Source: a virus
Reading direction: 5' to 3' (one strand)
IMG/VR virus record: IMGVR_UViG_3300028840_006907
Location: 96,001 to 160,000 of that record
Length of the DNA: 64,000 nucleotides
The position numbers and the translations under genes are program-made. A model generated the notes under the pieces. It saw only the letters and a list, made by a program, of their open reading frames with translations. It was not told the DNA's origin and did not search any database. Numbering within the stretch: position 1 is the first letter of the stretch; every line of letters starts with the position of its first letter. Shown here piece after piece: positions 1,243 through 64,000 of this stretch.

Positions 1243-1881
1243 TTAAAAAATACTTTTATATAATGTATTGTCACTATTTCCAATTTTATATGAAACTAGC
1301 GCTCCGAATTCTACAAATCGTTGCATTAATAAATATGCTTTGGCTCCAAATTTTTTAGAATAATCTTCAATCAATTCTGCCAGCTCTTCACGAGAAAATA
1401 AATGCGTGGTTATATCTTCACTTGCTTCGCTTAGATCTGAACTTATTTCTCCTTTAACAGAGCATAAAATCATAAATACCGATTCGTTCGTTAATCCTGT
1501 TGAACTATATATCGGAGGAGATACATGAAATATTTGATCGATATCTAATCCAGTTTCCTCCTTCATTTCTCTACGAGCCGCGATTTCGGGTGTCTCTCCT
1601 TTATCTATGAGCCCAGCAGGAAGGCCCCACTCGTAGTCTTCCAATGGTACTCTGTACTCTTTTGTTATCACCATTTTTCCATTATATAAAGCAGCGATAA
1701 CTACAGCTTTTTGATTATTAATTCTACGTACCCAATCCCATTTTTTATGTTCACCTCTTGTATCAATATATGGTGATGTAACCATTTGGATAAAAGGTGT
1801 TTTAAAATTAATTTCGATTAGATCCTTTAATATCCTCATTTTTCCATTAATCCTTAGAAATAAATGTTTCTGGTAACTCAT
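1243..1881 (-). CDS. NUDIX hydrolase (ADP-ribose pyrophosphatase-like)
   Basis: 212 aa; Nudix box GLPAGLIDKGETPEIAARREMKEETGL. Confidence 0.8.
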   Translation of the reverse strand: MSYQKHLFLRINGKMRILKDLIEINFKTPFIQMVTSPYIDTRGEHKKWDWVRRINNQKAVVIAALYNGKMVITKEYRVPLEDYEWGLPAGLIDKGETPEIAARREMKEETGLDIDQIFHVSPPIYSSTGLTNESVFMILCSVKGEISSDLSEASEDITTHLFSREELAELIEDYSKKFGAKAYLLMQRFVEFGALVSYKIGNSDNTLYKSIF

Positions 1882-7495: not shown

Positions 7496-7852
7496 TTATG
7501 TTTTTTTGGCTGGAAAACCTAAATATGTAAGTTTCCAATCTAATTTTTGAGTCCATCCTTTTTCGATGGCTATATTTCTTGCTTCTTTTCTTGTCCTTGC
7601 TTGAATAACTTTAAAAAAATCTTTACGTGCAGGTACAGTAAAAAGAAAGAGAGGGGGATTTCCGTTAGGCATCTCCACTTTTGGAAGATGTTGATCTTTA
7701 GAGAAAATCCTCTCTATAGTTGTTACCCGATACCCACACTTTGGATTGGTACATAATCTCCTTCGCCTAGTGACATAAGGAGTTTTACAACGTGAATCTA
7801 TTACTTGAGTAGCACTCTCACATTGAGGGCATTTAAATTTTGTATGTGTCAT
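7496..7852 (-). CDS. NrdR-like zinc-ribbon protein (no ATP-cone)
   Basis: 118 aa; [15 protein letters not shown]...[21 protein letters not shown] resembles NrdR N-terminal zinc ribbon. Confidence 0.5.
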
Positions 7853-8726
7853 CTATACTTTGTTCCGCTATATTTAACAAATATTTTCCGTAATTATTCT
7901 TTTCCATTGGTAGAGCTAGGTTCATTAATTGCCCCTCATTTATATAACCATTTCGGTATGCTATCTCTTCAGGAGAAGAAATGATCAGTCCTTGTCTGGT
8001 TTGTATAGCTTCTACAAACTGGGAAGCTTGCATCATGGATTCATGTGTACCCGTATCAAGCCATGCTACTCCTCGGCCAAGAAGTTCTACTTTCAATAAT
8101 TCTTTTTCAAGATAAATCTGGTTAAGGCTAGTTATTTCAAGTTCTCCTCTGGGGGAGGGTTTTACCTGATGAGCGTATTCCACAACATTTTCATCATAGC
8201 AATATAAACCGGTAACAGCATAGTTTGATTTTGGATATTTGGGTTTCTCTTCAATACTAATGGCTCTTCCGTGTCCATTAAATTCTACAACTCCATATCT
8301 TTGGGGATCTGTGACTTGGTAACCGAAAACAGTAGCACCATGATTAAGTGTTACTGATTTTCGGAGTTTATCAATGAATTTATGACCCCAGAATATATTG
8401 TCTCCTAAAATGAGTGTCGTAGGTGAATCCATGGCAAAATCAGCCCCGACAAGAAAGGCTTGAGCCAGCCCTTCAGGTTTAGGTTGTATTACATAAGAGA
8501 AGGACAGCCCCAATTTATGGCCATCTCCGAGTAATCGTTTATACGACTCTATATCCTGGGGTGTTGATATTATGAGAATTTCTCTAATTCCTGCAAGCAT
8601 TAGTATTGATAGAGGATAATATATCATCGGCTTATCGTATATAGGAATTAACTGTTTGCTTATTCCTATAGTAGCTGGATAGAGCCTAGTCCCTGATCCT
8701 CCGGCAAGGATAATACCTTTTACCAT
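7833..8726 (-). CDS. rmlA: glucose-1-phosphate thymidylyltransferase
   Basis: 297 aa; [16 protein letters not shown], full-length RmlA-like. Confidence 0.9.
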
Positions 8727-9466: not shown

Positions 9467-9931
9467 TTAATCTTCCCAAACAGTGTATTTATTAACACCT
9501 TGCCAATTAGTCTTATCATAAATGATCACAGGTCTTAAGAGATCCGGATCCAGAGCCATGGGAATCAACCATCTTAAATTTGGAATGATATTATTTGGCA
9601 AGTTGTTAATATCTGCTATAATTACTTTCTCATCTGTGGGATTATGTTCGGGTAAAATCAGTGCTGCTTTATTCAAAGCATAGAAAAAATAAACTCTCCA
9701 TCCTGAACCATTTATGATAGCAAAGTTTTTAAAATCCGCGATAGTATAAGAAGTTTCTTCTTTAAATTCCCTGATCATTGCCTGTTCAGGAGACTCCATT
9801 GGTTCAATATGACCTCCTATTCCGTTTACTTTATTTATCTGCCATTCTGGTCGATTTTTTTCTATCAGCATTACTTTATTAGTATGCCCTAAACAATCAT
9901 TAAAAAGAAATCCGACTACCATTTCAGTCAT
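9467..9931 (-). CDS. NUDIX hydrolase
   Basis: 154 aa; Nudix box GIGGHIEPMESPEQAMIREFKEETSYT. Confidence 0.75.
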   Translation of the reverse strand: MTEMVVGFLFNDCLGHTNKVMLIEKNRPEWQINKVNGIGGHIEPMESPEQAMIREFKEETSYTIADFKNFAIINGSGWRVYFFYALNKAALILPEHNPTDEKVIIADINNLPNNIIPNLRWLIPMALDPDLLRPVIIYDKTNWQGVNKYTVWED

Positions 9932-14654: not shown

Positions 14655-15758
14655 ATGAAATTGTTTGTTACCGGTGGAGCAGGATTTATAGGAGCTAATT
14701 TCGTAAATTATTGGATTCAGAAACACCCCAATGACTATGTTACTGTTTTTGATAAATTAACGTATGCAGGGAATCTTAGTAGTTTATCAAAAGTAATGAA
14801 ACATCCTCATTTTAAATTCATTCGTGGGGATATTTTAGATTATAATTTATTATGCAAATCATTGAAAGAAGTAAGTACAGTTGTTCATTTCGCTGCGGAA
14901 TCCCATGTGGATCGGTCTCTTTCGGGATATGAAGCAGAGATGTTGTTTAATCGAACTAATTTGGATGGTACTATCACGCTTCTTCATGCTTGTTCTTTAA
15001 TGGATGTTGAGAGATTTCATCATGTCTCTACAGATGAGGTATATGGTGATTTAGGATATGATGATAAGCCATTTAATGAGAAATCACCCTATAATCCCCA
15101 TAACCCTTATGCTATAAGTAAAGCTGCGGCTGATTTTGCGGTTAGAGGATTTTCCCGTAGTCATGGGTTGGTATATACTATAAGTAATTGTACCAATAAT
15201 TATGGTAAATACCAAACCCCAGAAAAAATTATCCCTCGATCTATATGTCTTTTATTGCAGGATAAAAAGATTGAACTCTATACCGATGAACTAGGAAATC
15301 CAGGGACGAATATTCGAGATTGGATTTTTGTAGAAGATCATTGTAGGGCAATTGAGAAGATCCTTTTATATGGGAAAAATGGAGAAACTTATTGTATTGG
15401 TGGTAATTGTGAGCTAAAAAATATCGAATTGGTTAAAAAGATTTTAGCAATTATGTCAAAATTATTGGGTAAAACCTTTTTTGTTGAAAATAATGTCAAA
15501 CTAGTTAAAGACAGACCCGGGCATGATTTAAGATATGCTATGGATATTGAGAAGATTTCTTCTGAGTTGGACTGGATCCCTAAGCATTCATTTAATGAGG
15601 CATTTGAGTTAACCGTAAAGTGGTATTTATCAGAAGAAGGACAACAGTGGTTAAAATCAGTTGAAAAAACTTCTGGGGAAGTGAGAAAAGATCAGAGTAA
15701 AAAACATAAGAAGAGTTTTGATCTAAAGAATAAATTCAGCCATATTTTCAAACAGTAG
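14655..15758 (+). CDS. rmlB: dTDP-glucose 4,6-dehydratase
   Basis: 367 aa; Rossmann GGAGFIGANFV, full-length RmlB-like. Confidence 0.9.
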   Translation: MKLFVTGGAGFIGANFVNYWIQKHPNDYVTVFDKLTYAGNLSSLSKVMKHPHFKFIRGDILDYNLLCKSLKEVSTVVHFAAESHVDRSLSGYEAEMLFNRTNLDGTITLLHACSLMDVERFHHVSTDEVYGDLGYDDKPFNEKSPYNPHNPYAISKAAADFAVRGFSRSHGLVYTISNCTNNYGKYQTPEKIIPRSICLLLQDKKIELYTDELGNPGTNIRDWIFVEDHCRAIEKILLYGKNGETYCIGGNCELKNIELVKKILAIMSKLLGKTFFVENNVKLVKDRPGHDLRYAMDIEKISSELDWIPKHSFNEAFELTVKWYLSEEGQQWLKSVEKTSGEVRKDQSKKHKKSFDLKNKFSHIFKQ

Positions 15759-15797: not shown

Positions 15798-15872
15798 AAG
15801 TGGTATACACAACTTAAAGAGCGGTCCTTCATGTTAACGTAGGTAATTTTCTCTGTAAGTTGTTGATTTATA

Positions 15873-16282
15873 TGGAGGTGAGGAGAGTTGAACTCCTGTC
15901 CGCGAAGGTATCTTGAGTAAACCTCTACATGTTTAGTCTATGGTTTAAATCTTATTCATAATCACGTTCACAGACAAACTTAATTAAGAACCAGTCTCTA
16001 GTCTCATTCATTGGTCAAGACTCCTCAATGAACCAGAACCCGTTTGGCTATCCGGAATTAACAGGGTTCAGTTAAAACCGGATTTGTCGTTTTTTGTTTA
16101 AACGACGGCTTCTTCTGCTTGATGAATAGCAGCAAGGTTAAGTGCTGAAAACATCGCACAGAAGTTAACTGTATTAGTTTTTTCAGTTATTATTGAAATC
16201 GGCTTTTTTACGAGGCCAACCGATTAACCTCGACATGCAGTTTACATTTCAACTCATCACGTCGAAAACCAAGTACACCCCC
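15873..16282 (-). ncRNA. ssrA: tmRNA (transfer-messenger RNA, ssrA-like)
   Basis: Minus strand 5' GGGGGTGTACTTGGTTTTCGACG..., internal GGTTGGCCTCGTAAAAAAGCCG matching conserved tmRNA pseudoknot/resume region, 3' tRNA-like GGAGTTCAACTCTCCTCACCTCCA. Confidence 0.8.
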
Positions 16283-17706: not shown

Positions 17707-18627
17707 TTAAATAATTTTATCCCAGTCGAATCCTGGGCCAATATCAAGTTTTCCATAGCCTCGATAGTTTACATGTGAACAAATTCCCTGGAAAGTCTGA
17801 GCTTCCTCTTTAGAAGGGAATAATCTGTAACGTTTATTCTCTGGAAGTAGTTCATGAGGAATATTGAATCTACTACATAGATAGGCTAATAAGTTACGAA
17901 GAGAGTCATATTGCTCTTCTGTGAAAGTAGCAAAATACGTATATTTGCGAAATGGCGTATCCAATTTAACATAAAATTCATCTTCATTAATGCCACAATA
18001 TTTCGTTCCGTAAACGGTATGTAAGTCTCCATTCTCTCTTACCAATGGGCCTATATTGGATAATTCAATAGCGATACTTCGTTTCGAATTTATACCATTT
18101 CCACCGACAGATCCTCGGCCCAGATGGTATGACCAATATCTTGGATCAAAAAGCTCGTATACAACACCATTTCGGCCTATCACATAAGCCGTAGACATAT
18201 GGACATCCTGCTCAGTCAGAGAGGCTAAATCACTCCGTAAAAACCCAACTGTAAAATGCAAGACTACCATATCTTTATCATATTCTGTCTCATAATAATA
18301 GCCAGTCACACCCTTTGGAGTTAAAATCGATAAAGGGAAAGTGAATGACCCATCTTCTTTCACATCATAAGAGACTCCGTCAGTATCTTTTTTTGTCCTT
18401 TCAAATTTTTCCTCGTGATTAGTAATACCTTCAGGGTACATCATTACCTCCTTTGTCTGATTGGTATTATCCTTTTCTGGTTCTTCTTTAATAGGCTCCG
18501 GCATTAAAGAAGTAGATGCAATAACTGATTCTTTTATTTTTGGTTGATCAGTTATTTTTTTGTTTGACTCGGTATTTGCAAACATTTGGCTTAAAAACCT
18601 GAAAAATGATTCTAATAAATTTTTCAT
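17707..18627 (-). CDS. N-acetylmuramoyl-L-alanine amidase (amidase_2/PGRP-like), endolysin candidate
   Basis: 306 aa; HFTVG...STAYVIGRNG pattern typical of amidase_2. Confidence 0.7.
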   Translation of the reverse strand: MKNLLESFFRFLSQMFANTESNKKITDQPKIKESVIASTSLMPEPIKEEPEKDNTNQTKEVMMYPEGITNHEEKFERTKKDTDGVSYDVKEDGSFTFPLSILTPKGVTGYYYETEYDKDMVVLHFTVGFLRSDLASLTEQDVHMSTAYVIGRNGVVYELFDPRYWSYHLGRGSVGGNGINSKRSIAIELSNIGPLVRENGDLHTVYGTKYCGINEDEFYVKLDTPFRKYTYFATFTEEQYDSLRNLLAYLCSRFNIPHELLPENKRYRLFPSKEEAQTFQGICSHVNYRGYGKLDIGPGFDWDKII

Positions 18628-20523: not shown

Positions 20524-21405
20524 TTATTTGTCTATATAGTGATAGCCCATTTTCTCCCACTGCTCTCTGAATTGAATAGCTTCATATTCTATCCCTAATA
20601 AATTTATTAGTATCTTTTCACTCTTTTTTGTTTTTTGTTGAATAGCTTGTTTAGTGATTTTATAAGAGTTAGCTAATTCTTCAAAAGTCCATTTACCTTT
20701 ATTATCCAAATTATACCGATGGATAATAATATTTTGTTGTTGTTCATTTAAATAGTTTTTTATGACTCTTCGAATGATAACATCTATTTCCGAATTCTCA
20801 TATTCTTTTCCGGTTAAGTAATGTTCATCAAGATCAGGTATATTATTTATTAGAAGGATGTCTTCAATTTCATTTCCATTACCTATGGGTTCATAGAGAG
20901 ATTCAACTTTTAATAATTTAAATCTCAATTTTTCCTTTTCTGTATATCTAATGTGAGGCATGTATTTTGTAATTATATTCTTTCTCGCTATTGGTGGTAT
21001 CATACTCATTATAAAAGTGGTCTCTTTATAAGCTGGGTTATAGCATTTACTTGAATGGGTGAGAATAGTAAGATTGATTTCATTTATAATATCCTGATAT
21101 TCTACTCCACCTTGTAAAGAGGTATATATCTTCTTTGCTATATTCACGACTATTCCTTCGTGTTTGGCTGGATCTATACGGTATATCTGTCGTATTAAAA
21201 TTTCTTTTCCTTTTATGGATGGTGAAGGTCTTTCTTTAAAGAGGCGGTATTCAGCTATTTTATTTTTTATTTGTTTAATTCCCGCTTTTTTGGCTGTCTT
21301 TTCATCGGTACAATTTGTTACTACTGCTGTGAATACTCTTTTGGAACCACTGAGATTTAATTTATCAGCTTTACCTTGTAATTTTACCTTAACTTCAAAT
21401 AGCAT
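20524..21405 (-). CDS. sigma-70-family-like transcription factor (divergent)
   Basis: 293 aa; C-terminal region-4-like HTH (FEELANSYKITKQAIQQ). Confidence 0.45.
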   Translation of the reverse strand: MLFEVKVKLQGKADKLNLSGSKRVFTAVVTNCTDEKTAKKAGIKQIKNKIAEYRLFKERPSPSIKGKEILIRQIYRIDPAKHEGIVVNIAKKIYTSLQGGVEYQDIINEINLTILTHSSKCYNPAYKETTFIMSMIPPIARKNIITKYMPHIRYTEKEKLRFKLLKVESLYEPIGNGNEIEDILLINNIPDLDEHYLTGKEYENSEIDVIIRRVIKNYLNEQQQNIIIHRYNLDNKGKWTFEELANSYKITKQAIQQKTKKSEKILINLLGIEYEAIQFREQWEKMGYHYIDK

Positions 21406-51360: not shown

Positions 51361-51632
51361 TGGAGTGTAGCTCAGTGGCAGAGCGGGTGGCTGTCTTGGT
51401 TGGCAGCTCTTATAGGAAACTGTAAGATGAAAACTCGGTGAATTCAGGGAAACCTAAGTCTTAAACAGATATGGCAATCCTGAGCGAAGCCTTGAGAAAG
51501 GAACGTGCAGAGACTTATAGCGCCGAGCACCTAAGGTGAAAACTATGGTGATGAGATAGTCCAGGCCCTTGGGAAATCAGGGGAATTACTGTAACCACTT
51601 GGTCGGGGGTTCAAATCCCTCCACTCCAGCCA
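51361..51632 (+). tRNA. tRNA-Asn (anticodon GTT) interrupted by a group I intron
   Basis: Exon 1 51361-51394 (TGGAGTG...GGTGG-CTGT), exon 2 51592-51632 (TAA-CCACT...CACTCCAGCCA); spliced loop CTGTTAA; U1:A72 as in bacterial tRNA-Asn. Confidence 0.7.
51395..51591 (+). ncRNA. group I intron (~197 nt) in tRNA-Asn anticodon loop
   Basis: 5' exon ends in U; IGS GGCAG pairs with exon CUGU; R-like GCAGAGACTTATAGCG and S-like GAGATAGTCC elements; terminal G before exon 2. Confidence 0.65.
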
Positions 51633-51683: not shown

Positions 51684-51884
51684 ATGAGTAAAGATGAGAA
51701 ACCTGATTATTCGAAAGATTTCGATACATGTCCTTGGTGTAATAAAATACCAAAAGTATCGAAACATTTCAGATATGATGAATGGCAACTGATCCATCGT
51801 TGTGATAAATTACTTACTGTAATTAGTATGGATTGGACTGAATTAGATAGTCTTAAAAATCGATGGAATCGACCTAAGAAATGA
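51684..51884 (+). CDS. hypothetical protein
   Basis: 66 aa ORF; CPWCNK. Confidence 0.4.
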   Translation: MSKDEKPDYSKDFDTCPWCNKIPKVSKHFRYDEWQLIHRCDKLLTVISMDWTELDSLKNRWNRPKK

Positions 51885-52156
51885 CAGAATGTACTATATG
51901 TGAAAGAGAAACTCCTGAGAAATATGTGGAGAAACATCACTTGACTCCTTGTAGCCGAGGAGGAAAGGATAAGGAGAAAACACTTACTTGTATTGATTGC
52001 GGAGATCAGGTACATCGATTATTTACGAATAAAGAATTGGAGAGAGACTATTATACACTCGAAAAATTATTAGCTCATCCTAAAATCCAGAAATGGAAGA
52101 AATGGGTTAAGAATAAGAGATTCGGGATATGTATGAAACGAAAAAAGAAGAGATAA
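51881..52156 (+). CDS. small HNH-type endonuclease-like protein
   Basis: 91 aa; CTICE...EKHHLTPCSRGG...CIDCGDQVH. Confidence 0.5.
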   Translation: MTECTICERETPEKYVEKHHLTPCSRGGKDKEKTLTCIDCGDQVHRLFTNKELERDYYTLEKLLAHPKIQKWKKWVKNKRFGICMKRKKKR

Positions 52157-53115: not shown

Positions 53116-53189
53116 GCGCCTGAGGCTCTGAGGTGAGCAACTTGGACTCTAAATCCAAGTTTTTCAGGGTTCGACTCCCTACAGGCGCA
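53116..53189 (+). tRNA. suppressor tRNA (anticodon CTA, reads UAG)
   Basis: Hand fold: acceptor GCGCCTG/CAGGCGC, anticodon stem TTGGA/TCCAA, loop CTCTAAA (U33, CUA, A37), T-loop TTCGACT. Confidence 0.65.
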
Positions 53190-54580: not shown

Positions 54581-54763
54581 ATGAGTATCGAGATTGTCGT
54601 AGCTGAATTAACACAAGGACTCAAAACTTTTCAATCAATCCATGGAGTTGATGACGAAGCAATGGTTGATGTTCTTACAGAGTGTGCCGAAATGTATAAA
54701 CGTAAAAAATTAGCAAAGGAAATGATGAAAAATAAAGATATAGTGACTGAACCTATTACTTAG
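54581..54763 (+). CDS. hypothetical protein
   Basis: 60 aa ORF. Confidence 0.35.
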   Translation: MSIEIVVAELTQGLKTFQSIHGVDDEAMVDVLTECAEMYKRKKLAKEMMKNKDIVTEPIT

Positions 54764-55454
54764 ATTTCTTTTCTTTATATTTGCTAAAGAGACCCATAAA
54801 AAGCGTCCAGAGTAATTTCAAGGCGTTATTCCTGACGTATTTTATTATTAATTCAATACCTTTCTTTTCGATATATAATTCAAATTCCTTTTCAAAAGTT
54901 TCTGTTCTATCCTTTATTGATTTTTTCCATACTTCAACCATTTCATTCAGATTGGTTTTACGTTCTTCAATCTCTTCTCGAATAGAATCTATTACCTCTT
55001 CTTTTTTATTACCTATTTCACTCAACAGGTCACTTAAATTTTTATCAATATCATTTTTGACATTCTTTAAAGCATCCTCTAGGAAACCTTGACCTTCATC
55101 CAATATCTTTCTGAGATTGTTATAGACTTCTCCCAATTCCCCTGTCTTGGTATCAGTTTTTCCCAAGAATTCCTTAACATTCTGGAGCTTTTCATCCATA
55201 TTACCAAGGTTGAGCTTTTCCATTGATTTTCTAATTTTTTCTGCTTTATCTTCTTGAATAGCCATATATTCTGCTAAATAATCTACTATTTTGTTTATTT
55301 TAAGTTTTGATTCAGAAAAATCAGGTTTTAGTTTTTCAACTTCCTCTTGTAATTCTTCTAAAAACATTTCACGGATTTTCTGAAGGGCTCCTTCCATTGC
55401 CCCACCGTTTGATGAGACACTGTTAAGTAGGTTCTTAAATTTCTTTTTATTCAT
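54756..55454 (-). CDS. coiled-coil protein
   Basis: 232 aa; E/K/L-rich heptad-like sequence. Confidence 0.5.
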   Translation of the reverse strand: MNKKKFKNLLNSVSSNGGAMEGALQKIREMFLEELQEEVEKLKPDFSESKLKINKIVDYLAEYMAIQEDKAEKIRKSMEKLNLGNMDEKLQNVKEFLGKTDTKTGELGEVYNNLRKILDEGQGFLEDALKNVKNDIDKNLSDLLSEIGNKKEEVIDSIREEIEERKTNLNEMVEVWKKSIKDRTETFEKEFELYIEKKGIELIIKYVRNNALKLLWTLFMGLFSKYKEKKSK

Positions 55455-55726
55455 GATTTCCTTTCTATTATTGTTATTTTTCTTACTTTGAGTTTCGGTC
55501 CTGGTACAACTTTGGCTGGTATTGGTATTTGTTCATGATACCATTCTATAAATCTTTCATCGTTTATATCAAAAATAAGCCCATCAGAGATAACAATATC
55601 AGGTTTATTTGATTTACTATCTGAAGTACCAATATGGACAGGATGGGTATATTCTTTTTCTGATGTTTGAACTTTTTCAGTTACCCAATAATATCCGTTT
55701 TTTTCAGGAGCTTTCTTTGTCCACAT
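55451..55726 (-). CDS. hypothetical protein
   Basis: 91 aa ORF, overlap-coupled in minus-strand gene block. Confidence 0.4.
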   Translation of the reverse strand: MWTKKAPEKNGYYWVTEKVQTSEKEYTHPVHIGTSDSKSNKPDIVISDGLIFDINDERFIEWYHEQIPIPAKVVPGPKLKVRKITIIERKS

Positions 55727-56029
55727 TTATAATATTTCTTTCACTTTGTTTTTTAATGTATCACATTTAGGATCAAATTCTGGCTCTTTTCCATCGTTCC
55801 ATGGTGACTTAATCCAGAAAAAGCATGAGTCAACACGACCCACTCTGATGTCTCCATTCATGTAATCCCTTTGTCCTTTAAAATAAGCCCTCTCAATGGC
55901 TTTAAAGTCGGTAGTGGCCTCTATACTAATGTATTGTATTTTATTGCTCTCAGGGGCAAATAACCGCCATGAGATAAGGAATAGTAAGTAAGCTCCTATT
56001 AAAATTATAAAACTATTAATTTTAAACAT
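55727..56029 (-). CDS. membrane-anchored hypothetical protein
   Basis: 100 aa; N-terminal hydrophobic helix. Confidence 0.4.
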   Translation of the reverse strand: MFKINSFIILIGAYLLFLISWRLFAPESNKIQYISIEATTDFKAIERAYFKGQRDYMNGDIRVGRVDSCFFWIKSPWNDGKEPEFDPKCDTLKNKVKEIL

Positions 56030-56897
56030 ATAAATTGTTCTCTTGTATAATACCAGCTATTAATGTGAGAAAAGGAGACTCCCTAAGATACTTTTCCCGA
56101 TCCTCCTTTAATTCTTTTCTGATATCTGTAGAGGATATCTTTGGTATTTTATTACCAGCATCAAAAAACTTATGTGGTTCTTTCATATACCAATTCACAT
56201 TTGGATCGCGCTTTTCTCCTTGTCTAGATACTACAATGAATGGTATCAATTTTTCAAGGTGTTCATAGTTAACCCATTTATCAAATGTATTGGCATTATC
56301 AAGTCCAATGACATAATTGAATCGGTATTCGTTTTTGGCAAAATCCTCTTCCATAAATTTATTAAGGAAATAATATGTCTCTCCAGCTAGTTCGTGAACA
56401 ATTTCATAATCGCATACTTTCATTCTCTTATCTACCTGTACATATTCTCGACACATGGCTAGCCGTAGTGATGCAGGAGCCATTTCTTTTCCATATAAAT
56501 GTCTGTAGCAGGGGATGTACCAAACTTCATCGAATAACCCTGCTTCATCGAGTAAGAATTTTCCTATAGCAAGATGGCCAGGATGGATGGGATCAAAAGC
56601 ACCCCCGATGAGCGCAACTGATACTTTCCTGCCAAGTTTACGGTATAAAGATCGGCTATTAATTTTGGTGATGTTCATTTCAACCAATTCATTAAAATCA
56701 TAACCGGCTTCATTAATCCATTGTATCAGTGTACCAAGTAGATCGCTCGTTTCATCTTTTAATCCCGTCATGGTCCTGGCTCTTGTCAATTCAAATGCTT
56801 CTTTAAGGATATCATTCAATCTGATATCAGTAGGAGTATTTCCAAAAGCTTCTGAATACGTTTTATTGATATTATTTAATAAATCTGATAAATTCAT
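56022..56897 (-). CDS. nadD: nicotinate-nucleotide adenylyltransferase (NadD/NMNAT-like) with N-terminal MazG-like extension
   Basis: 291 aa; GGAFDPIHPGHL (HxGH nucleotidyltransferase) and ISSTDIR; N-terminal ~90 aa EAFELTRARTMTGLKDETSDLLGTLIQWINEAG resembles MazG/HisE-type NTP-PPase. Confidence 0.75.
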   Translation of the reverse strand: MNLSDLLNNINKTYSEAFGNTPTDIRLNDILKEAFELTRARTMTGLKDETSDLLGTLIQWINEAGYDFNELVEMNITKINSRSLYRKLGRKVSVALIGGAFDPIHPGHLAIGKFLLDEAGLFDEVWYIPCYRHLYGKEMAPASLRLAMCREYVQVDKRMKVCDYEIVHELAGETYYFLNKFMEEDFAKNEYRFNYVIGLDNANTFDKWVNYEHLEKLIPFIVVSRQGEKRDPNVNWYMKEPHKFFDAGNKIPKISSTDIRKELKEDREKYLRESPFLTLIAGIIQENNLYV

Positions 56898-57078
56898 TTT
56901 TCAATTTCTTTTTAGGTAAATTTTTTATTATACAATCAATACAAATATCTTTACTTTTCCACTGCCCATTTTCTATAGTTCTTAATACCACCCTATAACT
57001 TTTATCTCTAATAAAGAGCCTGCTATCGTCAATATCCATTTGTTTTTTGCATATATCACATATTGTAATTTTAGCCAT
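56872..57078 (-). CDS. small zinc-ribbon protein
   Basis: 68 aa; CDICKK...CIDCI. Confidence 0.4.
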   Translation of the reverse strand: MAKITICDICKKQMDIDDSRLFIRDKSYRVVLRTIENGQWKSKDICIDCIIKNLPKKKLKNEFIRFIK

Positions 57079-57095
57079 TTTGTTTTAAATTACAT

Positions 57096-57887
57096 TTATA
57101 TATCTAAATGGCAAATACGAGGCATTTCCATTTTATGAGCATTCTTTTCATGTCGTTCTAGATATAATTCAAGAACTTTCATTTTTCTTTTTTCTATTGT
57201 TAACATAGATTTCATCGCTTCAAGTCCTTTGATAGTTTTTAAACCACCTAATTTTTTACAAAAATCCATAGCCCATTCCAATTCAGAATATGTAGCTCCA
57301 ATCTGATCTTCATCAGTTCTGCCATCTTCCCATAATCCATCAGTAGGTTTTGCTGTTAAAATATCTGAGTTCACTCCAAGATAGGCTCCCATACCATATA
57401 CCTCAGATTTGACTAGCTCTCCTATTGGACTTATATCAACACCACCATCACCGAATTTTGTAAAGAAACCAATTCCGAAATCTTCAACCATATTCCCAGT
57501 ACCAACAACATAATAATTATGGGTATTTGCGATAGCATAAAGAGCTACCATTCGAAGACGGGATCTGGTATTAACCATGGCAAATTCATTGTAATAATTA
57601 CTATGATTAAAATTATTAAAGACAACTGAAAGATCTTCCGTATGACTGGTAACATTGGTATAGTCTTTTTTTAATTTTTCAACATGTGCTTCTGCTCTGG
57701 GAAGAATATCTTGATTTATTGGCATATGGGCACATATAACAGGTTTATAAGTTCTGGCACATAAATTTGATACAACTGCTGAGTCAATTCCACCTGAAAC
57801 TCCAACTACACAGCCATCTACATGGGATTCCTTCATGTCTCTAATAATCCAATTTACAATATGATCTGAGACTTTTTTATAGTCCAA
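57096..57887 (-). CDS. nadE: NAD+ synthetase (NH3-dependent type)
   Basis: 263 aa; PP-loop GVSGGIDSAV. Confidence 0.8.
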   Translation of the reverse strand: MDYKKVSDHIVNWIIRDMKESHVDGCVVGVSGGIDSAVVSNLCARTYKPVICAHMPINQDILPRAEAHVEKLKKDYTNVTSHTEDLSVVFNNFNHSNYYNEFAMVNTRSRLRMVALYAIANTHNYYVVGTGNMVEDFGIGFFTKFGDGGVDISPIGELVKSEVYGMGAYLGVNSDILTAKPTDGLWEDGRTDEDQIGATYSELEWAMDFCKKLGGLKTIKGLEAMKSMLTIEKRKMKVLELYLERHEKNAHKMEMPRICHLDI

Positions 57888-57899
57888 ATTTATCCTCCT

Positions 57900-59624
57900 T
57901 TAATTCATGGCAATTGAGTATATTTTTTTATTGTCAACAAATAACACTTTCATATGTTCATGGTATAATCGCATAGATACATTAATCGGTGTATTCGTAA
58001 TATCCTTACTTCCTTTATTATTTTTAAATAGAGACATTTTATCATTATCGACAGAGATGCACATTCCAGTAGGTAATGTAATAAAATTAACTGGATGGTA
58101 ATCAATCATATCTTCCTGTTTAATATCATAGCTAGTATGGGTTTTATCAAAACAAATTGTATATTTAAAATAACTTCCCTGTTTTTCTGTGACCACTATA
58201 CAGATTCCTTTATCATACCGGGCATCAATGATTCTTTGGCCGTCCAATTCTTTTACATAAGTATTAATACATTTCCCTCTTTCGAAAGGAATAGCTAATC
58301 GTATCTTTGTGAAATCATCCTGTACAATAACACCTCGGAAAGACTTATATGATTTGCTTATTCTACATACAGTTTTAGTCGTATGAATAACTCTCTGGAA
58401 TTTTTCAAAATGATTCTCTATCAATCTTCCATTATTAATGGTGTAAATATACCCATTATACCCCATTATGTCTTCAGCTTTGATGTCGGATATTGATTTA
58501 TTATTTAAATCAAAGAACTCAGCTTTTAAATTCTTGAAATAAACTATTAAGGGATCCGCTCCATAAGCTTCACACATGCCTACTATGGTTGATTTTAAAG
58601 GTTTATGGAACTTAACCACTTTATCTTTATTCTGGTCATATATGGCTTTAGAAGTTATCACAAAGCGTTTATCATTAAAGAAGAAGATATTCCGAATCGG
58701 TTCATTTACTTCGAATACTTTTTCTACTATGAAATCACCTCTACTAGTTATAGTTCTGGCAACTGCTGCTACAACCACGACCTCGTCCGGTAATGGCGGG
58801 ATGGATCTCTCATTATTTTTAAATTCTGATACATACCATTCAAAATGTTTTTTAGGGATCACAGAATAATCTTGGCACATGGCCGGTAATGGCTTTGCTC
58901 CTTTATCAAAATTTGAGACTCCATCATCCATCCTTTTAATCCATTGTTTCGGTTTATAATCGATATGTCTACTTTTGTAAGGGTGAATACCCAGATACAT
59001 TTGATAAGTTACGACACCCCAGGAGAACCAGTCAGAGTACTCAGTAAATTGAGCATTCTTAACCTGTCGATCTCGAACACTATCCATAAGAGCATCTGCT
59101 GGGAAGCTTTTTGTTTTCCAGGCATCCACATCAATGTGATAAACGGTCTTTAAATCACCGCTAAGAAGGAAATTCATCTCATTATAATCAACTACTAGGA
59201 AGCCATTTTTATGGATGTATTGTAGGGCTTTCTGCATTTTAAGAACTAGGTCAGCTATATCTGTTGGACTTAAATGTTTATTGTCTCTGAAAGTCTTAGT
59301 AAATACTTGGCAGAGAAATTCAACTCCATCAACATATCTCATTGTAAACCCAATGGGTGTGTGGTTCCTCACTTCATATAAAGGTTCTATGGGTGACAGG
59401 ATATCATCTCGTTTTAATTCGGTCAATTCGTGTATTTTTGCTTCTGGTATCATATTTTTAGTATCATGATAAATTTTATATGCAATCCCATTTAGATAAA
59501 AAACTGTTCCAAAACCACCAGAAGCTTTATAATTATCATCAGTCAAAGTAACAATTTCTTTTGTTGTCTGAACTTTGAATGACTTCTTTATTATCGGGTT
59601 CATTTTTGTTTTCGGTAAAATCAT
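57900..59624 (-). CDS. protein-kinase-like (Ser/Thr kinase fold) protein with C-terminal extension
   Basis: 574 aa; Gly-rich loop SGGFGTVF, AYKIY Lys, catalytic-loop-like VVDYNEMNFLL, DVDAW. Confidence 0.6.
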   Translation of the reverse strand: MILPKTKMNPIIKKSFKVQTTKEIVTLTDDNYKASGGFGTVFYLNGIAYKIYHDTKNMIPEAKIHELTELKRDDILSPIEPLYEVRNHTPIGFTMRYVDGVEFLCQVFTKTFRDNKHLSPTDIADLVLKMQKALQYIHKNGFLVVDYNEMNFLLSGDLKTVYHIDVDAWKTKSFPADALMDSVRDRQVKNAQFTEYSDWFSWGVVTYQMYLGIHPYKSRHIDYKPKQWIKRMDDGVSNFDKGAKPLPAMCQDYSVIPKKHFEWYVSEFKNNERSIPPLPDEVVVVAAVARTITSRGDFIVEKVFEVNEPIRNIFFFNDKRFVITSKAIYDQNKDKVVKFHKPLKSTIVGMCEAYGADPLIVYFKNLKAEFFDLNNKSISDIKAEDIMGYNGYIYTINNGRLIENHFEKFQRVIHTTKTVCRISKSYKSFRGVIVQDDFTKIRLAIPFERGKCINTYVKELDGQRIIDARYDKGICIVVTEKQGSYFKYTICFDKTHTSYDIKQEDMIDYHPVNFITLPTGMCISVDNDKMSLFKNNKGSKDITNTPINVSMRLYHEHMKVLFVDNKKIYSIAMN

Positions 59625-60487
59625 TAATATTCCTCATTTAAATAAATAGTAGCAGTACCAACGTCATCATAATGATGCCAATTATGTTTTTTAACTTTCT
59701 TACCAAAAAAGATCATGCGCTTTTTTACAAATTCACCGGTAGTGTTTTTAAATCCAATAAATTCGGGTATTGTAATATCTAATCCTATATCTTTTTTATA
59801 ACTATCTCTGTAGGTTGATATACCATCTGTACATATTGTAACAGATAAGAGTTTATCCTTCATAATATTGGAAATTTCTTCGGAATAGATTGTATCAAAA
59901 GGTAATGAAGATTCAAGAGGATTTTCTAGCCCCTTTTCTCCTGACAAAGTAATAATTTCCCGAAAGCATTGAGGATTATCTTCACCTTTAATAGCACAAT
60001 TTTTTAAATAGACTGTTCTATCACTTATTAGATAAAATGGGGCATTTAAGGAATAATCTATTTTCATTATTAGCTGATAATTACCGCCATCTTCTTTTCT
60101 ATAATTAGCTGTAATGACACCATCACCCCATGCAAATACCAATACTCTTGAAGACAATCTTATAGTTATTAATAATGTGGCTTCCAAAGCCTTAGGAGTA
60201 ATGGGGTATATCTTTCTTATTTCATCAGCTCTTTTGTGAATGCCGTTTCCGAGATAAAATGAGAGTTCTTTCAGATTTAATCGTTCGAATAATCCAGTTT
60301 GGATACAAAATTCAATATTATATTTAGCAACATGACATAATATTTGAGCACCTACTTCAGAATGATCCGCAGAAGAACATCCATCTGCAACGATGCCATA
60401 CTCAATTCCTTTAAAAGAGCCACTTAATGCATAGTCTTGACAGACTAAATGAGTGCTTCCTTTTTCATAATATGAGTCACAGCTCAC
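59624..60487 (-). CDS. PP2C-family (PPM) protein phosphatase-like
   Basis: 287 aa; GIVADGCSS, FAWGDGV, ICTDGIS motifs. Confidence 0.6.
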   Translation of the reverse strand: MSCDSYYEKGSTHLVCQDYALSGSFKGIEYGIVADGCSSADHSEVGAQILCHVAKYNIEFCIQTGLFERLNLKELSFYLGNGIHKRADEIRKIYPITPKALEATLLITIRLSSRVLVFAWGDGVITANYRKEDGGNYQLIMKIDYSLNAPFYLISDRTVYLKNCAIKGEDNPQCFREIITLSGEKGLENPLESSLPFDTIYSEEISNIMKDKLLSVTICTDGISTYRDSYKKDIGLDITIPEFIGFKNTTGEFVKKRMIFFGKKVKKHNWHHYDDVGTATIYLNEEY

Positions 60488-60546
60488 AATTACCTCCTTT
60501 TAGTAAGCACAGAAGGCTCCATTACAGAGCCTTCCTGCAAAAATTC

Positions 60547-61314
60547 CTAGTTAAATTTGAAATCTTTAATTGGTTGTGAAGGTTGTCCGGTGCCGAGGGC
60601 ATCTGACTGTGAGCTAACACTCTGACTCATAAACTGGGCTAGTTTAGCTAATTTTGATTCAGAAACATCACCCATTGATATATATTCATCAAGTCCAGCT
60701 TCTTCTTTGAAATCCGTAAGTAATTTCTTTAAATCTTTTCTACCATCATTAACACCAATAAGAATGGTACGAACTGATTCCATCGCTTCATCTTCATCAT
60801 TCATACTGTCTAATGTTTCTTTTATCATTTGTGGAGTAACACCGAATTCGGGGCAATTATCTTCACCATCAGTAATTATGAAAACCATTCCATTAGCATT
60901 TACGATCCTTTCAGAATTATAGAGCTTATTTATATAATCTCTCATGACGTCCAAACCACAAAGAGTCGCTTGAAAAAGATTTGTAGCATTCGCTGGAAAG
61001 ATCACATCGTCGTAATTATCTAGTTCAATATCACTCAGAAGCATCCATCCATGAATTTCCTGGATACCTCCATTATTAAAAGCGATAACACGTAATAAAA
61101 GATTCAAAGCTCGTGGGGAGCCTTTACATGACCCTACACATGCTTTTATCATTTTTTCCAGACCTGTTTTAAACCCTTTCACTGAATAGGTTTTATCAAC
61201 GATTATAGTGACTGCTGTATATTCTGTAGCTCCAAGTCTATCAACTTTAACTTTTGTATAATCGAATTTATGGAGAGATACATCGGAATCACTTACATTC
61301 ATAAACTTAGGCAT
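60547..61314 (-). CDS. vWA-domain protein (TerY-like)
   Basis: 255 aa; VFIITDGEDN and degenerate MIDAS IIVDKTYS. Confidence 0.55.
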   Translation of the reverse strand: MPKFMNVSDSDVSLHKFDYTKVKVDRLGATEYTAVTIIVDKTYSVKGFKTGLEKMIKACVGSCKGSPRALNLLLRVIAFNNGGIQEIHGWMLLSDIELDNYDDVIFPANATNLFQATLCGLDVMRDYINKLYNSERIVNANGMVFIITDGEDNCPEFGVTPQMIKETLDSMNDEDEAMESVRTILIGVNDGRKDLKKLLTDFKEEAGLDEYISMGDVSESKLAKLAQFMSQSVSSQSDALGTGQPSQPIKDFKFN

Positions 61315-61326
61315 AAGTTATCCTTT

Positions 61327-62154
61327 CTAGAAAAAGTCCACTGTTGTAGCAACCTGCATACCATAATCATCTGCAGTATACTTGTTAATAAAGTCTTCAC
61401 CATTTTGCTCACATCCAGGTACACTTGAAGTAGCATCTTTGAGTAAAACGAATTTTTTAACTTGGTCGGCACCTAAATATTCAAAGATATCTCTGAATGT
61501 AAAGGAATAGCAGTGTGAAAGAGCTTCACCAGCTCCAAGAATTATATCATATTCCTTGATTACATTGATAAAATCTTCGTTTAATCTGGTTCCTTCATCC
61601 TCTGGGTCAATCACGTCAGCCACTAATGCTGAATAGTGCTCAGTGAAAGGATTACTCCCTTTGGTGGTACGGGGAGCAATACCGTAATAAGTGGCTTCCC
61701 ATTCAGAGACCGCATTGAGAAATTCAGGCTCTAACATTTGTCCATCACTTCCGATAATACAATGTTCAGGCCATATCATTAATTGATATCTGTTATTAGC
61801 CTTTAATTGTTTCAAGTAGTCAACATAACGCTCTTGAAAGCCTGGATTGAAAGCACGGTATTCTCCATCTAAGACCATTTCTAAAGTTAAGTACGTAGGT
61901 ACAGTATTCCCTTTGTGAAGGAAAATAGGTGTGGGGTGGTTTCCCTCTCTGTCAATCCAAGATCGGCTGTGAGCCACGTGGAGCTTATAATGTGAGTCCA
62001 TCGTGATTTGGATTTCATCAATATCACCCCCGAATTTTCGAATCATTTTTGAAAGTCTTGCCATGTCTTCAACGGCACCAGGAACAGTGAGAGTTCCCCT
62101 TGTAAAGTCTTTTTGAGGGTCAATTACCACAAGGCACACTTTAGGTTTTTCCAT
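61327..62154 (-). CDS. pncA: nicotinamidase (isochorismatase-family)
   Basis: 275 aa; VVIDPQKDF, WPEHCIIGSDGQ, RTTKG, catalytic-Cys context GAGEALSHCY. Confidence 0.8.
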   Translation of the reverse strand: MEKPKVCLVVIDPQKDFTRGTLTVPGAVEDMARLSKMIRKFGGDIDEIQITMDSHYKLHVAHSRSWIDREGNHPTPIFLHKGNTVPTYLTLEMVLDGEYRAFNPGFQERYVDYLKQLKANNRYQLMIWPEHCIIGSDGQMLEPEFLNAVSEWEATYYGIAPRTTKGSNPFTEHYSALVADVIDPEDEGTRLNEDFINVIKEYDIILGAGEALSHCYSFTFRDIFEYLGADQVKKFVLLKDATSSVPGCEQNGEDFINKYTADDYGMQVATTVDFF

Positions 62155-62201
62155 ATCTTATCCTCCTTTAAGATTTAGTATATGTTATCTGTTATTTATA
62201 A

Positions 62202-62444
62202 TTAAAGCAACCCTTTTATATCAGCCCTTTCAATATCAGTTCTGTTAAAAAAGTTCTTATTTCCTTTTTTTCTAGGTTCTGGTAATACCCCGCATTTTAT
62301 ACGACGGTATATAGTTTGTTTGGATATATTATATTCAGTACAAATATCTCTCAAACTAATTTCATCTCTATGATGTTTGTAAAGTATTTTAGCTACTTCT
62401 TCTGCTATAGCTTTTGCTAATTTTTTAATATCTGCATCATCCAT
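62202..62444 (-). CDS. small HTH DNA-binding protein (AlpA/MerR-like)
   Basis: 80 aa; ISKQTIYRRIKCGVLPEP. Confidence 0.5.
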   Translation of the reverse strand: MDDADIKKLAKAIAEEVAKILYKHHRDEISLRDICTEYNISKQTIYRRIKCGVLPEPRKKGNKNFFNRTDIERADIKGLL

Positions 62445-62451
62445 AATATAT

Positions 62452-63624
62452 TTATATCATTAAATCTTTTTTACAATGTACAATCATATCTTTATTACCA
62501 GTGTTCTTTCCTTCGTCATCTGATAACTTGACTGTGTCAATCCATCTGCCATTTATCATACAGGCTATCATTTTAATAACAATATTCAATGGTATGACAT
62601 CTACGTCATTTGTAAACCAGGTTCCAATTCCATATGCATCTCTGATCAAATTGATGCAAGCTTTATGGATAGATTTCACTTTATCTATACTGTTAATAGC
62701 ATCAGAGAATACCAATGTTTTAAGCATCGGATCAATTCTTAATTTTTGGTATTTACTTACTGATTTAGTAATGAAATCAAAAGGTGAACCACTATCTTGC
62801 CGGAGACCATCAAAAAGTTTCGCAAAAAATGTATTGAATGTTTTTAGGAATACATCAGTAGTAAATGTATCTGGAAGAGCAATTCCAAGATCTCCTTGAA
62901 ATATATCAGACCATATTTTCAGAGCCATCTCATTAGCCATACGAAATCCATACATAGCTGCATGGAATTGATACCATTCATGAGCTTTTGTTCCTATGGG
63001 AGTTAAATTGTATTTCTTTGCTAGATAAACATTACTAGGTCCAGAGAAACAACTACCTAGATATTGCTTTGCATCACGAACTACTTCATCATGATTCTTT
63101 AGAGAGTATCTTCTACGAGTACCAAATTCAGCGATGGGTACTCCGATTTCTTTAAGAGCCATAAATTTCAGACGATTTCTTTCTTTACGTTCCTTACGAA
63201 TCATCTTTGTCTTACCAGTTTTCTCAAAATAAAGTTGACTGATAGTAGCCATCAAAGGTACTTCCCAAAGAATCTTTCGGTACCAGGGTCCTATATACTT
63301 ACAATGAAAATTAGATCCTTCTTGTGTTAATATTATCTCATCTGGGTTATACCGGTACCCACTAAGAAGATCGATATAGGCAGGATTTAAATAATAACAT
63401 TTTTCTTTAAGAAAGTCTATATCATCTTTGCTTAATGTAAAACCACGAAATGTGTCTATAATTCTCCTTAATTCATCGGCAAAGCCATCTGGAAACTCTC
63501 TACCATCACGGTTTATAAATTGGTACATAGCGAGAGCATTGGGGTATTTCTGACATGCCCCACACTGCATAGTGAATTTATACACATCATTATCGAGTAT
63601 ACCAGCTACGTACTCATTCTCCAT
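62452..63624 (-). CDS. pncB: nicotinate phosphoribosyltransferase
   Basis: 390 aa; N-terminal LDNDVYKFTM signature of NAPRTase family. Confidence 0.8.
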   Translation of the reverse strand: MENEYVAGILDNDVYKFTMQCGACQKYPNALAMYQFINRDGREFPDGFADELRRIIDTFRGFTLSKDDIDFLKEKCYYLNPAYIDLLSGYRYNPDEIILTQEGSNFHCKYIGPWYRKILWEVPLMATISQLYFEKTGKTKMIRKERKERNRLKFMALKEIGVPIAEFGTRRRYSLKNHDEVVRDAKQYLGSCFSGPSNVYLAKKYNLTPIGTKAHEWYQFHAAMYGFRMANEMALKIWSDIFQGDLGIALPDTFTTDVFLKTFNTFFAKLFDGLRQDSGSPFDFITKSVSKYQKLRIDPMLKTLVFSDAINSIDKVKSIHKACINLIRDAYGIGTWFTNDVDVIPLNIVIKMIACMINGRWIDTVKLSDDEGKNTGNKDMIVHCKKDLMI

Positions 63625-63712: not shown

Positions 63713-63943
63713 TTGGAAACTGAAAAACATATAAAAACGATTATAGCTGAGATTTTATGCCTTAAAGAAGATGAAATAATACCGCAAGCATCTATCGTAG
63801 ATGATCTTGGTGCAGATTCACTAGATGAAATAGAAATTTTAATGGCTTTAGAGGATGAACTTGATATAGATATTCCTGAAAATGAAGCTCAGAGAATGAA
63901 AACAGTTAAGGATATCTTAAAATATATTGAAGAAATCACCTAA
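63713..63943 (+). CDS. acyl carrier protein-like
   Basis: 76 aa; DLGADSLDEIEIL phosphopantetheine-attachment motif. Confidence 0.65.
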   Translation: METEKHIKTIIAEILCLKEDEIIPQASIVDDLGADSLDEIEILMALEDELDIDIPENEAQRMKTVKDILKYIEEIT

Positions 63944-64000
63944 CTAAATACATAACTCCTAAATAGAATAAAAGACCAAAAATAGCAAATAAACTTAAGA

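Follow-up and report, generated by a model that had tools for sequence, protein, structure and literature searches.

A putative nicotinamide-recycling operon on a probable huge-phage genome, built round a conserved nicotinamidase-vWA-PP2C-kinase cassette

Bacteria widely defend themselves by depleting nicotinamide adenine dinucleotide (NAD+), and since 2024 three pathways by which phages rebuild NAD+ have been validated. These NAD+ reconstitution pathways (NARP) comprise NARP1, which combines Adps and Namat, NARP2, which combines NadV and NMNAT (bioRxiv 10.1101/2024.02.11.579819), and NARP3, consisting of PnuC and NadR (PMC13464706). Synthesis of NAD+ had been proposed in 2021 as a jumbo-phage counter to NADase effectors (PMC7824862), and the 'NAD-jumbo phages' described in Microbiome in 2024, such as Kuafu_71, carry Preiss-Handler clusters of pncB-nadD-nadE for which an action against NAD+ depletion was suggested without experiment (PMC11662467). 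TerY-P, in turn, is a gene triad of von Willebrand factor A (vWA) protein, PP2C phosphatase and kinase, for which a phosphorylation switch has been proposed (Anantharaman et al. 2012, as described in PMC11090510). The same article describes a TerY-P-like stand-alone anti-phage system (Gao et al. 2020), kinases that end in a Zn-ribbon in the classical version or an OB fold in the defence version, and a mechanism given just as a hypothesised metal-sensing switch. Here we describe a locus that combines NAD+ genes with such a triad. It lies at 56022-63624 of a stretch of 64,000 nucleotides (hereafter the window; positions 96,001 to 160,000 of IMG/VR virus record IMGVR_UViG_3300028840_006907), and it is probably a nine-gene nicotinamide-recycling operon with a nicotinamidase-vWA-PP2C-kinase cassette as core and switch, extended to a full NAD+ pathway on a probable huge-phage genome.

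An earlier note on this DNA had described the interval as a block of four NAD+ genes. The four enzyme genes do lie on the minus strand where the note had placed them, and all the motifs it quoted were found in the translations. However, the open reading frame (ORF) list shows nine minus-strand genes packed into the interval, overlapping or with intergenic gaps of at most 59 nt, in the transcription order PncB, helix-turn-helix (HTH) protein, PncA-like nicotinamidase, vWA protein, PP2C, Ser/Thr kinase, NadE, a Cys-rich ORF of 68 amino acids (aa) and NadD (Table 1). The block is built round the vWA, PP2C and kinase genes, which the note had left out together with the HTH gene and the 68-aa ORF, all of them co-directional within the same interval.

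The NAD+ route is assigned from sequence and fold. Profile or fold matches and the presence of catalytic residues bear out all four enzyme assignments of the note, and together the enzymes would form a complete route from nicotinamide through nicotinate, nicotinate mononucleotide (NaMN) and nicotinate adenine dinucleotide (NaAD) to NAD+. Three of the four Pfam families that the note had expected, NAPRTase, CTP_transf_like and NAD_synthase, were matched, whereas the isochorismatase family (PF00857) was not: the single nicotinamidase sequence had no Pfam match and scored 19.2 bits with NCBIfam PRK11609 (cut-off 174). Its family comprises 1166 clusters at an E-value of 0.001 or better, with members of 265-280 aa, a few of which carry a precomputed PF00857 match and some of which are labelled nicotinamidase-related by JGI. 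A profile of 31 sequences matched solely nicotinamidases in the PDB, the best being yeast Pnc1 (9e-13). The AlphaFold (AF2) model, with a pLDDT score of 94, had nicotinamidases as its top 15 Foldseek matches in the PDB (best match 2wta, 4.6e-16, template modelling (TM) score 0.76 on target), and its matches covered the enzymes of Acinetobacter, yeast, Drosophila, Pyrococcus, Leishmania and Streptococcus. On alignment with Pnc1, the catalytic triad D12/K165/C215 corresponds to D8/K122/C167 and is invariant in 31 homologues, and the metal ligands D53/H55/H131 (WPEHC motif) correspond to D51/H53/H94 and are invariant in the family. Such an Asp-His-His metal site sets nicotinamidases apart from other isochorismatase-like hydrolases. 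The family is a divergent one with an insertion, and we regard the 275-aa protein as a divergent, long-form nicotinamidase, its predicted substrate being read solely from the conserved active-site residues.

For the remaining enzymes the matches are to named families. PncB scored above the equivalog-level cut-off of two NCBIfam models (NF003704, 406 bits against 379; TIGR01514, 363.8 against 269.55), contains the Pfam NAPRTase_N and NAPRTase domains, and has H215 and R170-R172 conserved among 17 homologues. NadE was recognised by the equivalog-domain model TIGR00552 (171.2 bits, cut-off 63.65), by Pfam NAD_synthase (2.6e-45) and by PHROG 11189, NAD synthetase (2.7e-67), and its PP-loop SGGIDS (GVSGGIDS) is visible in the translation; since no glutaminase or CN_hydrolase domain was found by Pfam in its 263 aa, it is taken to be of the NH3-dependent type. 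NadD matched CTP_transf_like over residues 96-261 (64.5 bits, cut-off 21; 1.4e-17) and fell just below the cut-off of the equivalog model TIGR00482 (102.2 bits against 112.45). Its best PDB matches are all NadD, the motifs HxGH and ISSTDIR are present, and P103, G107, H108, S255, S256 and R260 are conserved. It also bears an N-terminal extension of about 90 aa (residues 1-91) with a weak, sub-threshold MazG match (Pfam E 0.019) and no meaningful match in the PDB. The full-length architecture is common to the 735-kb huge phage LR756501, at 42% identity; a MazG-NadD fusion would be unusual.

The vWA protein matched nothing in Pfam, no PDB profile and, by hhalign, not the window's other vWA protein, and its identity comes from a fold search, in which all the top Foldseek matches of the AF2 model (pLDDT 83) were vWA or integrin I domains. 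Homologues are named YegL by JGI, that is, TerY-type vWA. The metal-ion-dependent adhesion site (MIDAS) is intact, with D40, S44, T111 and D149 invariant and with T in the window protein at position 42, which is S in at least 90% of the family. The C-terminal tail is conserved, Ser-rich and disordered; S230, S232 and S246 are invariant in it, and S234 and S237 vary little or not at all. PP2C matched Pfam PP2C_2 (4.5e-16), and at least 95% of 61 homologues retain D18, D35, D122, D221, D274 and D275; lying in PP2C-like motifs, these aspartates are read as probable metal ligands. The kinase matched Pfam Pkinase over residues 56-224 (5.6e-09), and G36 and G37 of the glycine loop, the catalytic K50 and E66, N151 and both catalytic aspartates, D146 and D165, are invariant. 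The predicted parts of a switch are thus present in the MIDAS vWA with its Ser-rich tail, the kinase catalytic residues and the PP2C aspartates.

The conservation of the locus was studied in a viral sample drawn from 179 IMG/VR nicotinamidase matches, many on contigs of 200-550 kb. Eighty loci plus that of the window, 81 in all, were examined by iterated hidden Markov model searches, and a gene within 10 kb of PncA was counted as a neighbour. The vWA gene was a neighbour in 76 of the 81 loci, PP2C in 73 and the kinase in 72, and all three were found together in 70. Much lower counts were obtained for PncB (27/81), NadE (22/81) and NadD (18/81), and the three occurred together in 11 loci. The conserved unit is therefore PncA-vWA-PP2C-kinase, rather than the four NAD enzymes, and it is the triad, not PncB, NadD and NadE, that the nicotinamidase has as conserved partner. 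The reverse test agrees, in that PncA was present in 72 of 78 kinase-anchored viral loci, the other six being cut off or interrupted by long insertions. With 168 viral contig matches for the kinase beside the 179 for the nicotinamidase, about 170-180 viral contigs carry one or the other of these proteins.

The order PncA-vWA-PP2C-kinase is kept nearly always on one strand. The exceptions are four loci (L011, L015, L016 and L024) with the PP2C-kinase pair upstream of PncA-vWA; the adjacency of each pair despite the rearrangement is consistent with two sub-modules that interact. Across the four cassette genes, pairwise identities rise and fall together (r 0.47-0.61). With antisense shadow ORFs set aside, every other family was confined to at most 24 of the viral loci, and since the flanks are not syntenic, the cassette seems to be kept as a unit by selection and not by shared regional ancestry. 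Mere synteny of related phages was considered as an explanation and rejected, as the flanks have no other common family and the cassette is also found in unrelated bacterial chromosomes.

At least one further NAD-related gene was present within 10 kb in 45 of the 81 viral loci, often interleaved with the triad genes, as in L045 and L050, which read PncA-vWA-PncB-NadE-PP2C-NadD-kinase. PncB is the commonest additional neighbour. Others that recur are NadM-type adenylyltransferase-Nudix fusions (16/81), PARP-like ADP-ribosyltransferases (8/81), NrtR-like regulators, glutamine-dependent NadE, calcineurin-like phosphoesterases and LAGLIDADG endonucleases. LAGLIDADG genes, for example at L031:9098-9955 (-), and other insertions repeatedly split the cassette with the gene order intact, and in L042 and L057 a distance of 7-9 kb separates the vWA gene from the PP2C gene downstream. 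PARP-like proteins with WGR, PARP regulatory and catalytic domains adjoin the cassette in a set of loci (L031:5365-6705, L095:15731-16999, L156:6283-9285), within which a 1000-aa WGR/ATP-dependent-ligase-like protein is also found next to it. These neighbours, which occur in phage and bacterial loci alike, suggest that ADP-ribosylation and the nicotinamidase cassette are connected. Among GenBank phages, the cassette was restricted to huge phages that are uncultured, namely LR756511 (595 kb), LR745208 (485 kb) and LR756500 (462 kb), the matches in the last being more divergent (31% identity for the nicotinamidase, and the kinase domain only). In cultured jumbo phages, Atu_ph07 and Phosso among them, just PncB is annotated, and phage G gave a weak match to an unnamed gene.

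The cassette is not confined to viruses. The nicotinamidase had at least 490 matches in a species-representative collection of bacterial genomes, the carriers being mostly metagenome-assembled genomes of Armatimonadota, Acidobacteriota (Pyrinomonadaceae, Blastocatellia), Desulfobacterales and Thiotrichaceae. In 80 bacterial loci, many of them incomplete, the nicotinamidase was followed by vWA in 54, by the kinase in 39 and by PP2C in 37. A closed Capsulimonadaceae chromosome (OZ244065.1) carries PncA-vWA-PP2C-kinase-PncB in an ordinary chromosomal setting, flanked by genes for an ABC transporter, a BlaR1-type peptidase, a flavin reductase and an ECF sigma factor. NrtR, recognised as a Nudix domain with an NrtR winged helix, accompanies 31 of the 80 bacterial loci, mostly about 1 kb or less upstream of PncA, with a few genes 1.6-2.8 kb away or downstream, and NUDIX, ADP-ribosylglycohydrolase, NADAR and PARP genes recur in the flanks. 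The NrtR regulon concept reportedly goes back to Rodionov et al. in 2008. As the factors of the NrtR family are ADP-ribose sensors that control NAD genes (PMC13464706), the linkage places the cassette inside the NAD/ADP-ribose homeostasis network. We conclude that the cassette is a nicotinamide-recycling or NAD-homeostasis module common to bacteria and huge phages, and that it is probably under phospho-control.

These bacterial loci bear directly on the explanation given in the earlier note, namely that the block is a dedicated counter-defence device, a deamidating reconstitution pathway (the fourth, counting NARP1-3) directed at the NADases of Thoeris, DSR, SIR2 and TIR systems and selected for rebuilding NAD+ from NADase-released nicotinamide, thereby rescuing the phage from abortive infection. 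The route is complete and phage-borne, three other phage NAD+ pathways demonstrably act in this way (bioRxiv 10.1101/2024.02.11.579819; PMC13464706), related viral loci add NadM-Nudix and PARP genes of ADP-ribose and NAD handling, and an inducible switch would suit a sudden cleavage of NAD+. However, a phage invention dedicated to anti-defence is difficult to reconcile with the core cassette occurring equally in bacterial chromosomes, behind NrtR and among housekeeping genes, which points to homeostasis, or with a full enzyme set lying nearby in just 11 of the 81 viral loci. A Preiss-Handler-type route, needing PRPP (phosphoribosyl pyrophosphate) and two to three ATP over four steps, is also slower and dearer than NARP2 by textbook stoichiometry, and no host, defence system or phenotype is tied to the block. 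The novelty claimed for it as a third, undescribed solution does not hold either, as Preiss-Handler clusters and the counter-depletion idea are found in PMC11662467 (2024) and the NAD+ synthesis idea in PMC7824862 (2021), both of which suggested such a role for jumbo-phage NAD genes without a test. A counter-defence role of the block is plausible; that it is dedicated to this purpose is possible but, in our view, doubtful.

The architecture of the triad invites another explanation. Adjacent genes for a TerY-type vWA protein, PP2C and a Ser/Thr kinase constitute the TerY-P arrangement, and the cassette could be a conflict or signalling system related to TerY-P with the nicotinamidase as effector and the Preiss-Handler genes as opportunistic neighbours, in which triggered removal of nicotinamide would starve the NARP1 or NARP2 of rival phages or relieve the product inhibition of ADP-ribosyltransferases or sirtuins. 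An association of TerY-P with restriction systems and stand-alone defence by TerY-P-like modules are described (PMC11090510, citing Gao et al. 2020), the linkage of the four genes is near-obligate while PncB, NadD and NadE are optional, and PARP, ADP-ribosylglycohydrolase and NADAR recur nearby. In PADLOC, however, neither the vWA protein nor PP2C matched any family, TerY-P included, at an E-value of 0.01 or better, and the kinase gave just weak PD-T4-6 and mad6 matches, for which reason the triad was not filed as a member of the TerY-P defence family. In the C-terminal part of the kinase, Pfam showed neither a Zn-ribbon nor an OB fold, the fusions of known TerY-P kinases. PncB as the commonest added neighbour and NrtR control in bacteria fit salvage rather than deprivation, and in the window the genes of the downstream enzymes are interspersed within the one operon. 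We consider this explanation improbable. A bolder combination is somewhat less so, though still rather unlikely: the cassette may be an unrecognised signalling system of TerY-P type that senses NAD+ cleavage through a surge of nicotinamide or ADP-ribose and switches recycling on by phosphorylation, used in bacteria under NrtR and captured by huge phages, where with PncB, NadD and NadE it would become an inducible, deamidating fourth pathway defeating NAD+-depleting immunity. If true, this would give the first biochemical handle on what TerY-P-like triads sense.

The reading that we favour is the nicotinamide-recycling operon with its own switch. In it, the nicotinamidase would convert nicotinamide to nicotinate and NH3, PncB would form NaMN from nicotinate and PRPP, NadD would form NaAD from NaMN and ATP, and NadE would complete NAD+ from NaAD, ATP and NH3, for which the NH3 of the first step could be used. 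Kinase and PP2C would constitute a phosphorylation switch whose probable target is the vWA protein's conserved Ser-rich tail, and MIDAS-mediated binding by that protein may gate the activity of the nicotinamidase or the assembly of its complex. Recycling could in this way be tied to a signal, for example NAD+ cleavage, with the freed nicotinamide channelled back to NAD+. In the phage lineage of the window the cassette would have been extended with PncB, NadE and NadD, so that the infected cell could rebuild NAD+ from nicotinamide without host enzymes. The phage may gain resistance to NAD+-depleting defence, a supply for its own NAD+ consumers, or both; possible consumers are PARP in related loci and the 4,6-dehydratase of the window (GDP_Man_Dehyd/Epimerase), a NAD-dependent sugar dehydratase on the same element.

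Several observations weigh against this reading. The regulatory link between triad and nicotinamidase is one that we infer purely from the linkage of the genes. The nicotinamidase shares at most 18% identity with solved enzymes and has an insertion of about 60 residues, and the C-terminal region of the kinase, of about 350 aa, had no match in Pfam or the PDB and contains no invariant Cys in the family alignment. No NAD riboswitch or other cis-regulatory RNA was found upstream of the block at Rfam gathering thresholds, and no promoter could be recognised, the counts of the promoter and terminator scans being at the level of shuffled sequence. No other NAD gene lies within 10 kb in 36 of the 81 viral loci, which suggests that in many phages the cassette may use host enzymes or serve another purpose. 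Two further points concern the viral origin: the 64-kb window and about 20 kb beyond its ends yielded no gene for a capsid, portal or terminase protein, and the contig of the window was not among the IMG/VR nicotinamidase matches.

On these last grounds, the window could be non-viral, a piece of a small-genome bacterium, a symbiont or another large extrachromosomal element, with the genes serving housekeeping NAD salvage, and some vWA homologues are indeed labelled Patescibacteria or Gracilibacteria. The window is part of a 388,651-bp metagenomic contig (JGI 3300017963, Ga0180437_10000019) and has a GC content of 33%. Within 64 kb it carries 35 tRNA genes in several arrays and a tmRNA, a group I intron, several HNH/NUMOD homing endonucleases, MazG, two Nudix proteins, PHROG families of no assigned function and a match to the Ogr/Delta zinc finger, which is phage-typical. 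The majority of its ORFs are short and without match, and its 25 most-matched Pfam families, out of 33, include no ribosomal gene and no other gene of the cellular core. Complete huge-phage genomes (LR756500, LR756501, LR756511 and LR745208) contain the nearest annotated relatives of PncB, NadD, PncA and the kinase. When two non-metabolic proteins of the window were compared with GenBank phages, one gave a weak match (Bacillus phage G gp268) and the other none. The description 'phage-encoded' of the earlier note thus agrees with the tRNAs, tmRNA, HNH endonucleases and PHROG families, and lacks the backing of a structural hallmark gene. We consider it highly probable that the window belongs to a huge phage, and a non-viral origin very improbable.

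Table 1. Coordinates of the operon genes and of other features in the window.
Feature	Position	Strand	Basis
PncB, nicotinate phosphoribosyltransferase, 390 aa	62452-63624	-	NCBIfam and Pfam
Small HTH DNA-binding protein, 80 aa	62202-62444	-	Pfam HTH_17
Predicted long-form nicotinamidase (PncA-like), 275 aa	61327-62154	-	Family profile and fold model
TerY/YegL-type vWA protein, 255 aa	60547-61314	-	Predicted fold
PP2C-family protein phosphatase, 287 aa	59624-60487	-	Pfam PP2C_2
Ser/Thr protein kinase, 574 aa	57900-59624	-	Pfam Pkinase
NadE, NH3-dependent NAD+ synthetase, 263 aa	57096-57887	-	TIGR00552 and Pfam
Cys-rich ORF, 68 aa, zinc-ribbon-like	56872-57078	-	Two CxxC pairs
NadD-type NaMN adenylyltransferase, 291 aa	56022-56897	-	Pfam CTP_transf_like
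Three ORFs (100, 91 and 232 aa), no informative family match	54756-56029	-	Overlapping or abutting coordinates
Acyl carrier protein	63713-63943	+	TIGR00517 (83 bits, exceeding its cut-off)
35 tRNA genes in several arrays	2426-53189		
tmRNA	15870-16282		Rfam, 159.9 bits
tRNA with anticodon CTA	53116-53189		ARAGORN, tRNA-Pyl
Group I catalytic intron	51385-51583	+	Rfam RF00028, 92.8 bits
ORF, probable homing endonuclease	51881-52156	+	HNH-like Cys/His motif
Second vWA protein	6335-7456	-	Pfam VWA, borderline
AAA ATPase, 536 aa	11048-12658	-	
Nucleotidyltransferase	7833-8726	-	NTP_transferase, 2.7e-69
4,6-dehydratase	14655-15758	+	GDP_Man_Dehyd/Epimerase
Nudix hydrolase	1243-1881	-	Intact Nudix box
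Nudix hydrolase	9467-9931	-	Intact Nudix box
Sigma-70 region 4 protein	20524-21405	-	
Amidase_2 protein	17707-18627	-	

The smaller genes of the operon are not part of the conserved unit. The HTH protein (Pfam HTH_17, 6.3e-07; PHROG excisionase/transcriptional regulator; PADLOC mad1, 3.7e-08) is not conserved among the related loci. It sits where NrtR stands in bacterial loci, and a role as local regulator is possible. The 68-aa ORF, whose translation shows CDIC...CIDC, had no family match in Pfam or NCBIfam and is likewise not conserved in related loci. The three ORFs beyond NadD are probably co-transcribed with the NAD block, outside the conserved module, and were not found in any related locus examined. 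The acyl carrier protein gene is divergent from PncB.

Other parts of the window and its surroundings deserve mention. The tRNA with a CTA anticodon, which Rfam does not list at its gathering threshold, is a candidate amber suppressor and would hint at TAG recoding in part of the genome. The ORF with the HNH-like motif follows the group I intron. The second vWA protein, unrelated to that of the cassette, is encoded a few kb from the AAA ATPase, and the two may form a MoxR/vWA-type chaperone pair, as described for some jumbo phages. The nucleotidyltransferase and the 4,6-dehydratase represent a sugar-nucleotide pathway. Besides the two Nudix hydrolases, the Pfam census includes a MazG protein, an R2K ATP-grasp protein and an inosine-uridine nucleoside hydrolase, and all of these could belong to nucleotide or ADP-ribose handling. 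The sigma-70 region 4 protein is a possible phage sigma factor, and the Amidase_2 protein, an N-acetylmuramoyl-L-alanine amidase, is a candidate endolysin. In the 10 kb past window position 64000 (L001 1-9900), adjacent to the NAD block, a run of membrane-stress or remodelling genes, which is unusual phage cargo, encodes YqiJ, flotillin/Band 7, PspA/IM30, a CesT-like chaperone and a K+ channel with a TrkA/RCK domain.

In comparison with the validated phage pathways, the block resembles NARP1-3 in that phage enzymes would rebuild NAD+ from breakdown products or precursors, and NARP2 likewise starts at nicotinamide. The enzymes themselves are different, as the earlier note had correctly pointed out: PncA, PncB, NadD and NadE stand against the NARP1-3 sets, no PnuC, NadR, Adps-, Namat- or NadV-type enzyme was found among the family matches of the nine genes, and the phosphoribosyltransferase scores as nicotinate-specific PncB. 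Whereas NARP1-3 consist of two genes each and use amidated intermediates, the block combines regulatory genes with a four-enzyme deamidating route via NaMN and NaAD, which is known here from sequence. The literature searched on phage NAD+ reconstitution mentions no nicotinamidase, and the deamidating route, if confirmed, would be a fourth solution, working even where routes based on nicotinamide mononucleotide are blocked. With the NAD-jumbo phages (PMC11662467) the locus has in common a genome above 200 kb and clustered pncB, nadD and nadE, which make up a complete NAD+ route, the viral identity of the window being the probable one argued above. Unlike them, the window adds a nicotinamidase, which extends the route back to the NADase product, and an interleaved vWA/PP2C/kinase triad; the main text of PMC11662467 never uses the word 'kinase'.

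With TerY-P the locus shares adjacent genes for a TerY/YegL-type vWA protein, PP2C and a Ser/Thr kinase. However, the triad of the window is linked to a nicotinamidase and NAD genes, and TerY-P to Ter or restriction genes, and the long C-terminal domain of the window kinase, unmatched in Pfam and the PDB, contains no Zn-ribbon or OB fold recognisable by sequence. To our knowledge, the mechanism of TerY-P-like triads has not been resolved so far, and the cassette offers a concrete context for these triads, a known type of anti-phage defence. It would also tie Ser/Thr phospho-signalling to NAD salvage, a link not met with in the literature searched, in which we found no paper connecting a nicotinamidase with a vWA/PP2C/kinase triad. 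The bacterial NrtR-controlled pncA-pncB salvage operons are similar in the linkage of nicotinamidase and PncB and in the NrtR genes that accompany the bacterial cassette loci. Canonical PncA has 180-215 aa and we know of no triad associated with it, whereas the nicotinamidases of the cassette are longer and almost always occur with the triad. Phage NAD pathways themselves were thus already known, and what is new is the cassette in which huge phages and bacteria alike combine, almost without exception, the nicotinamidase with the triad.

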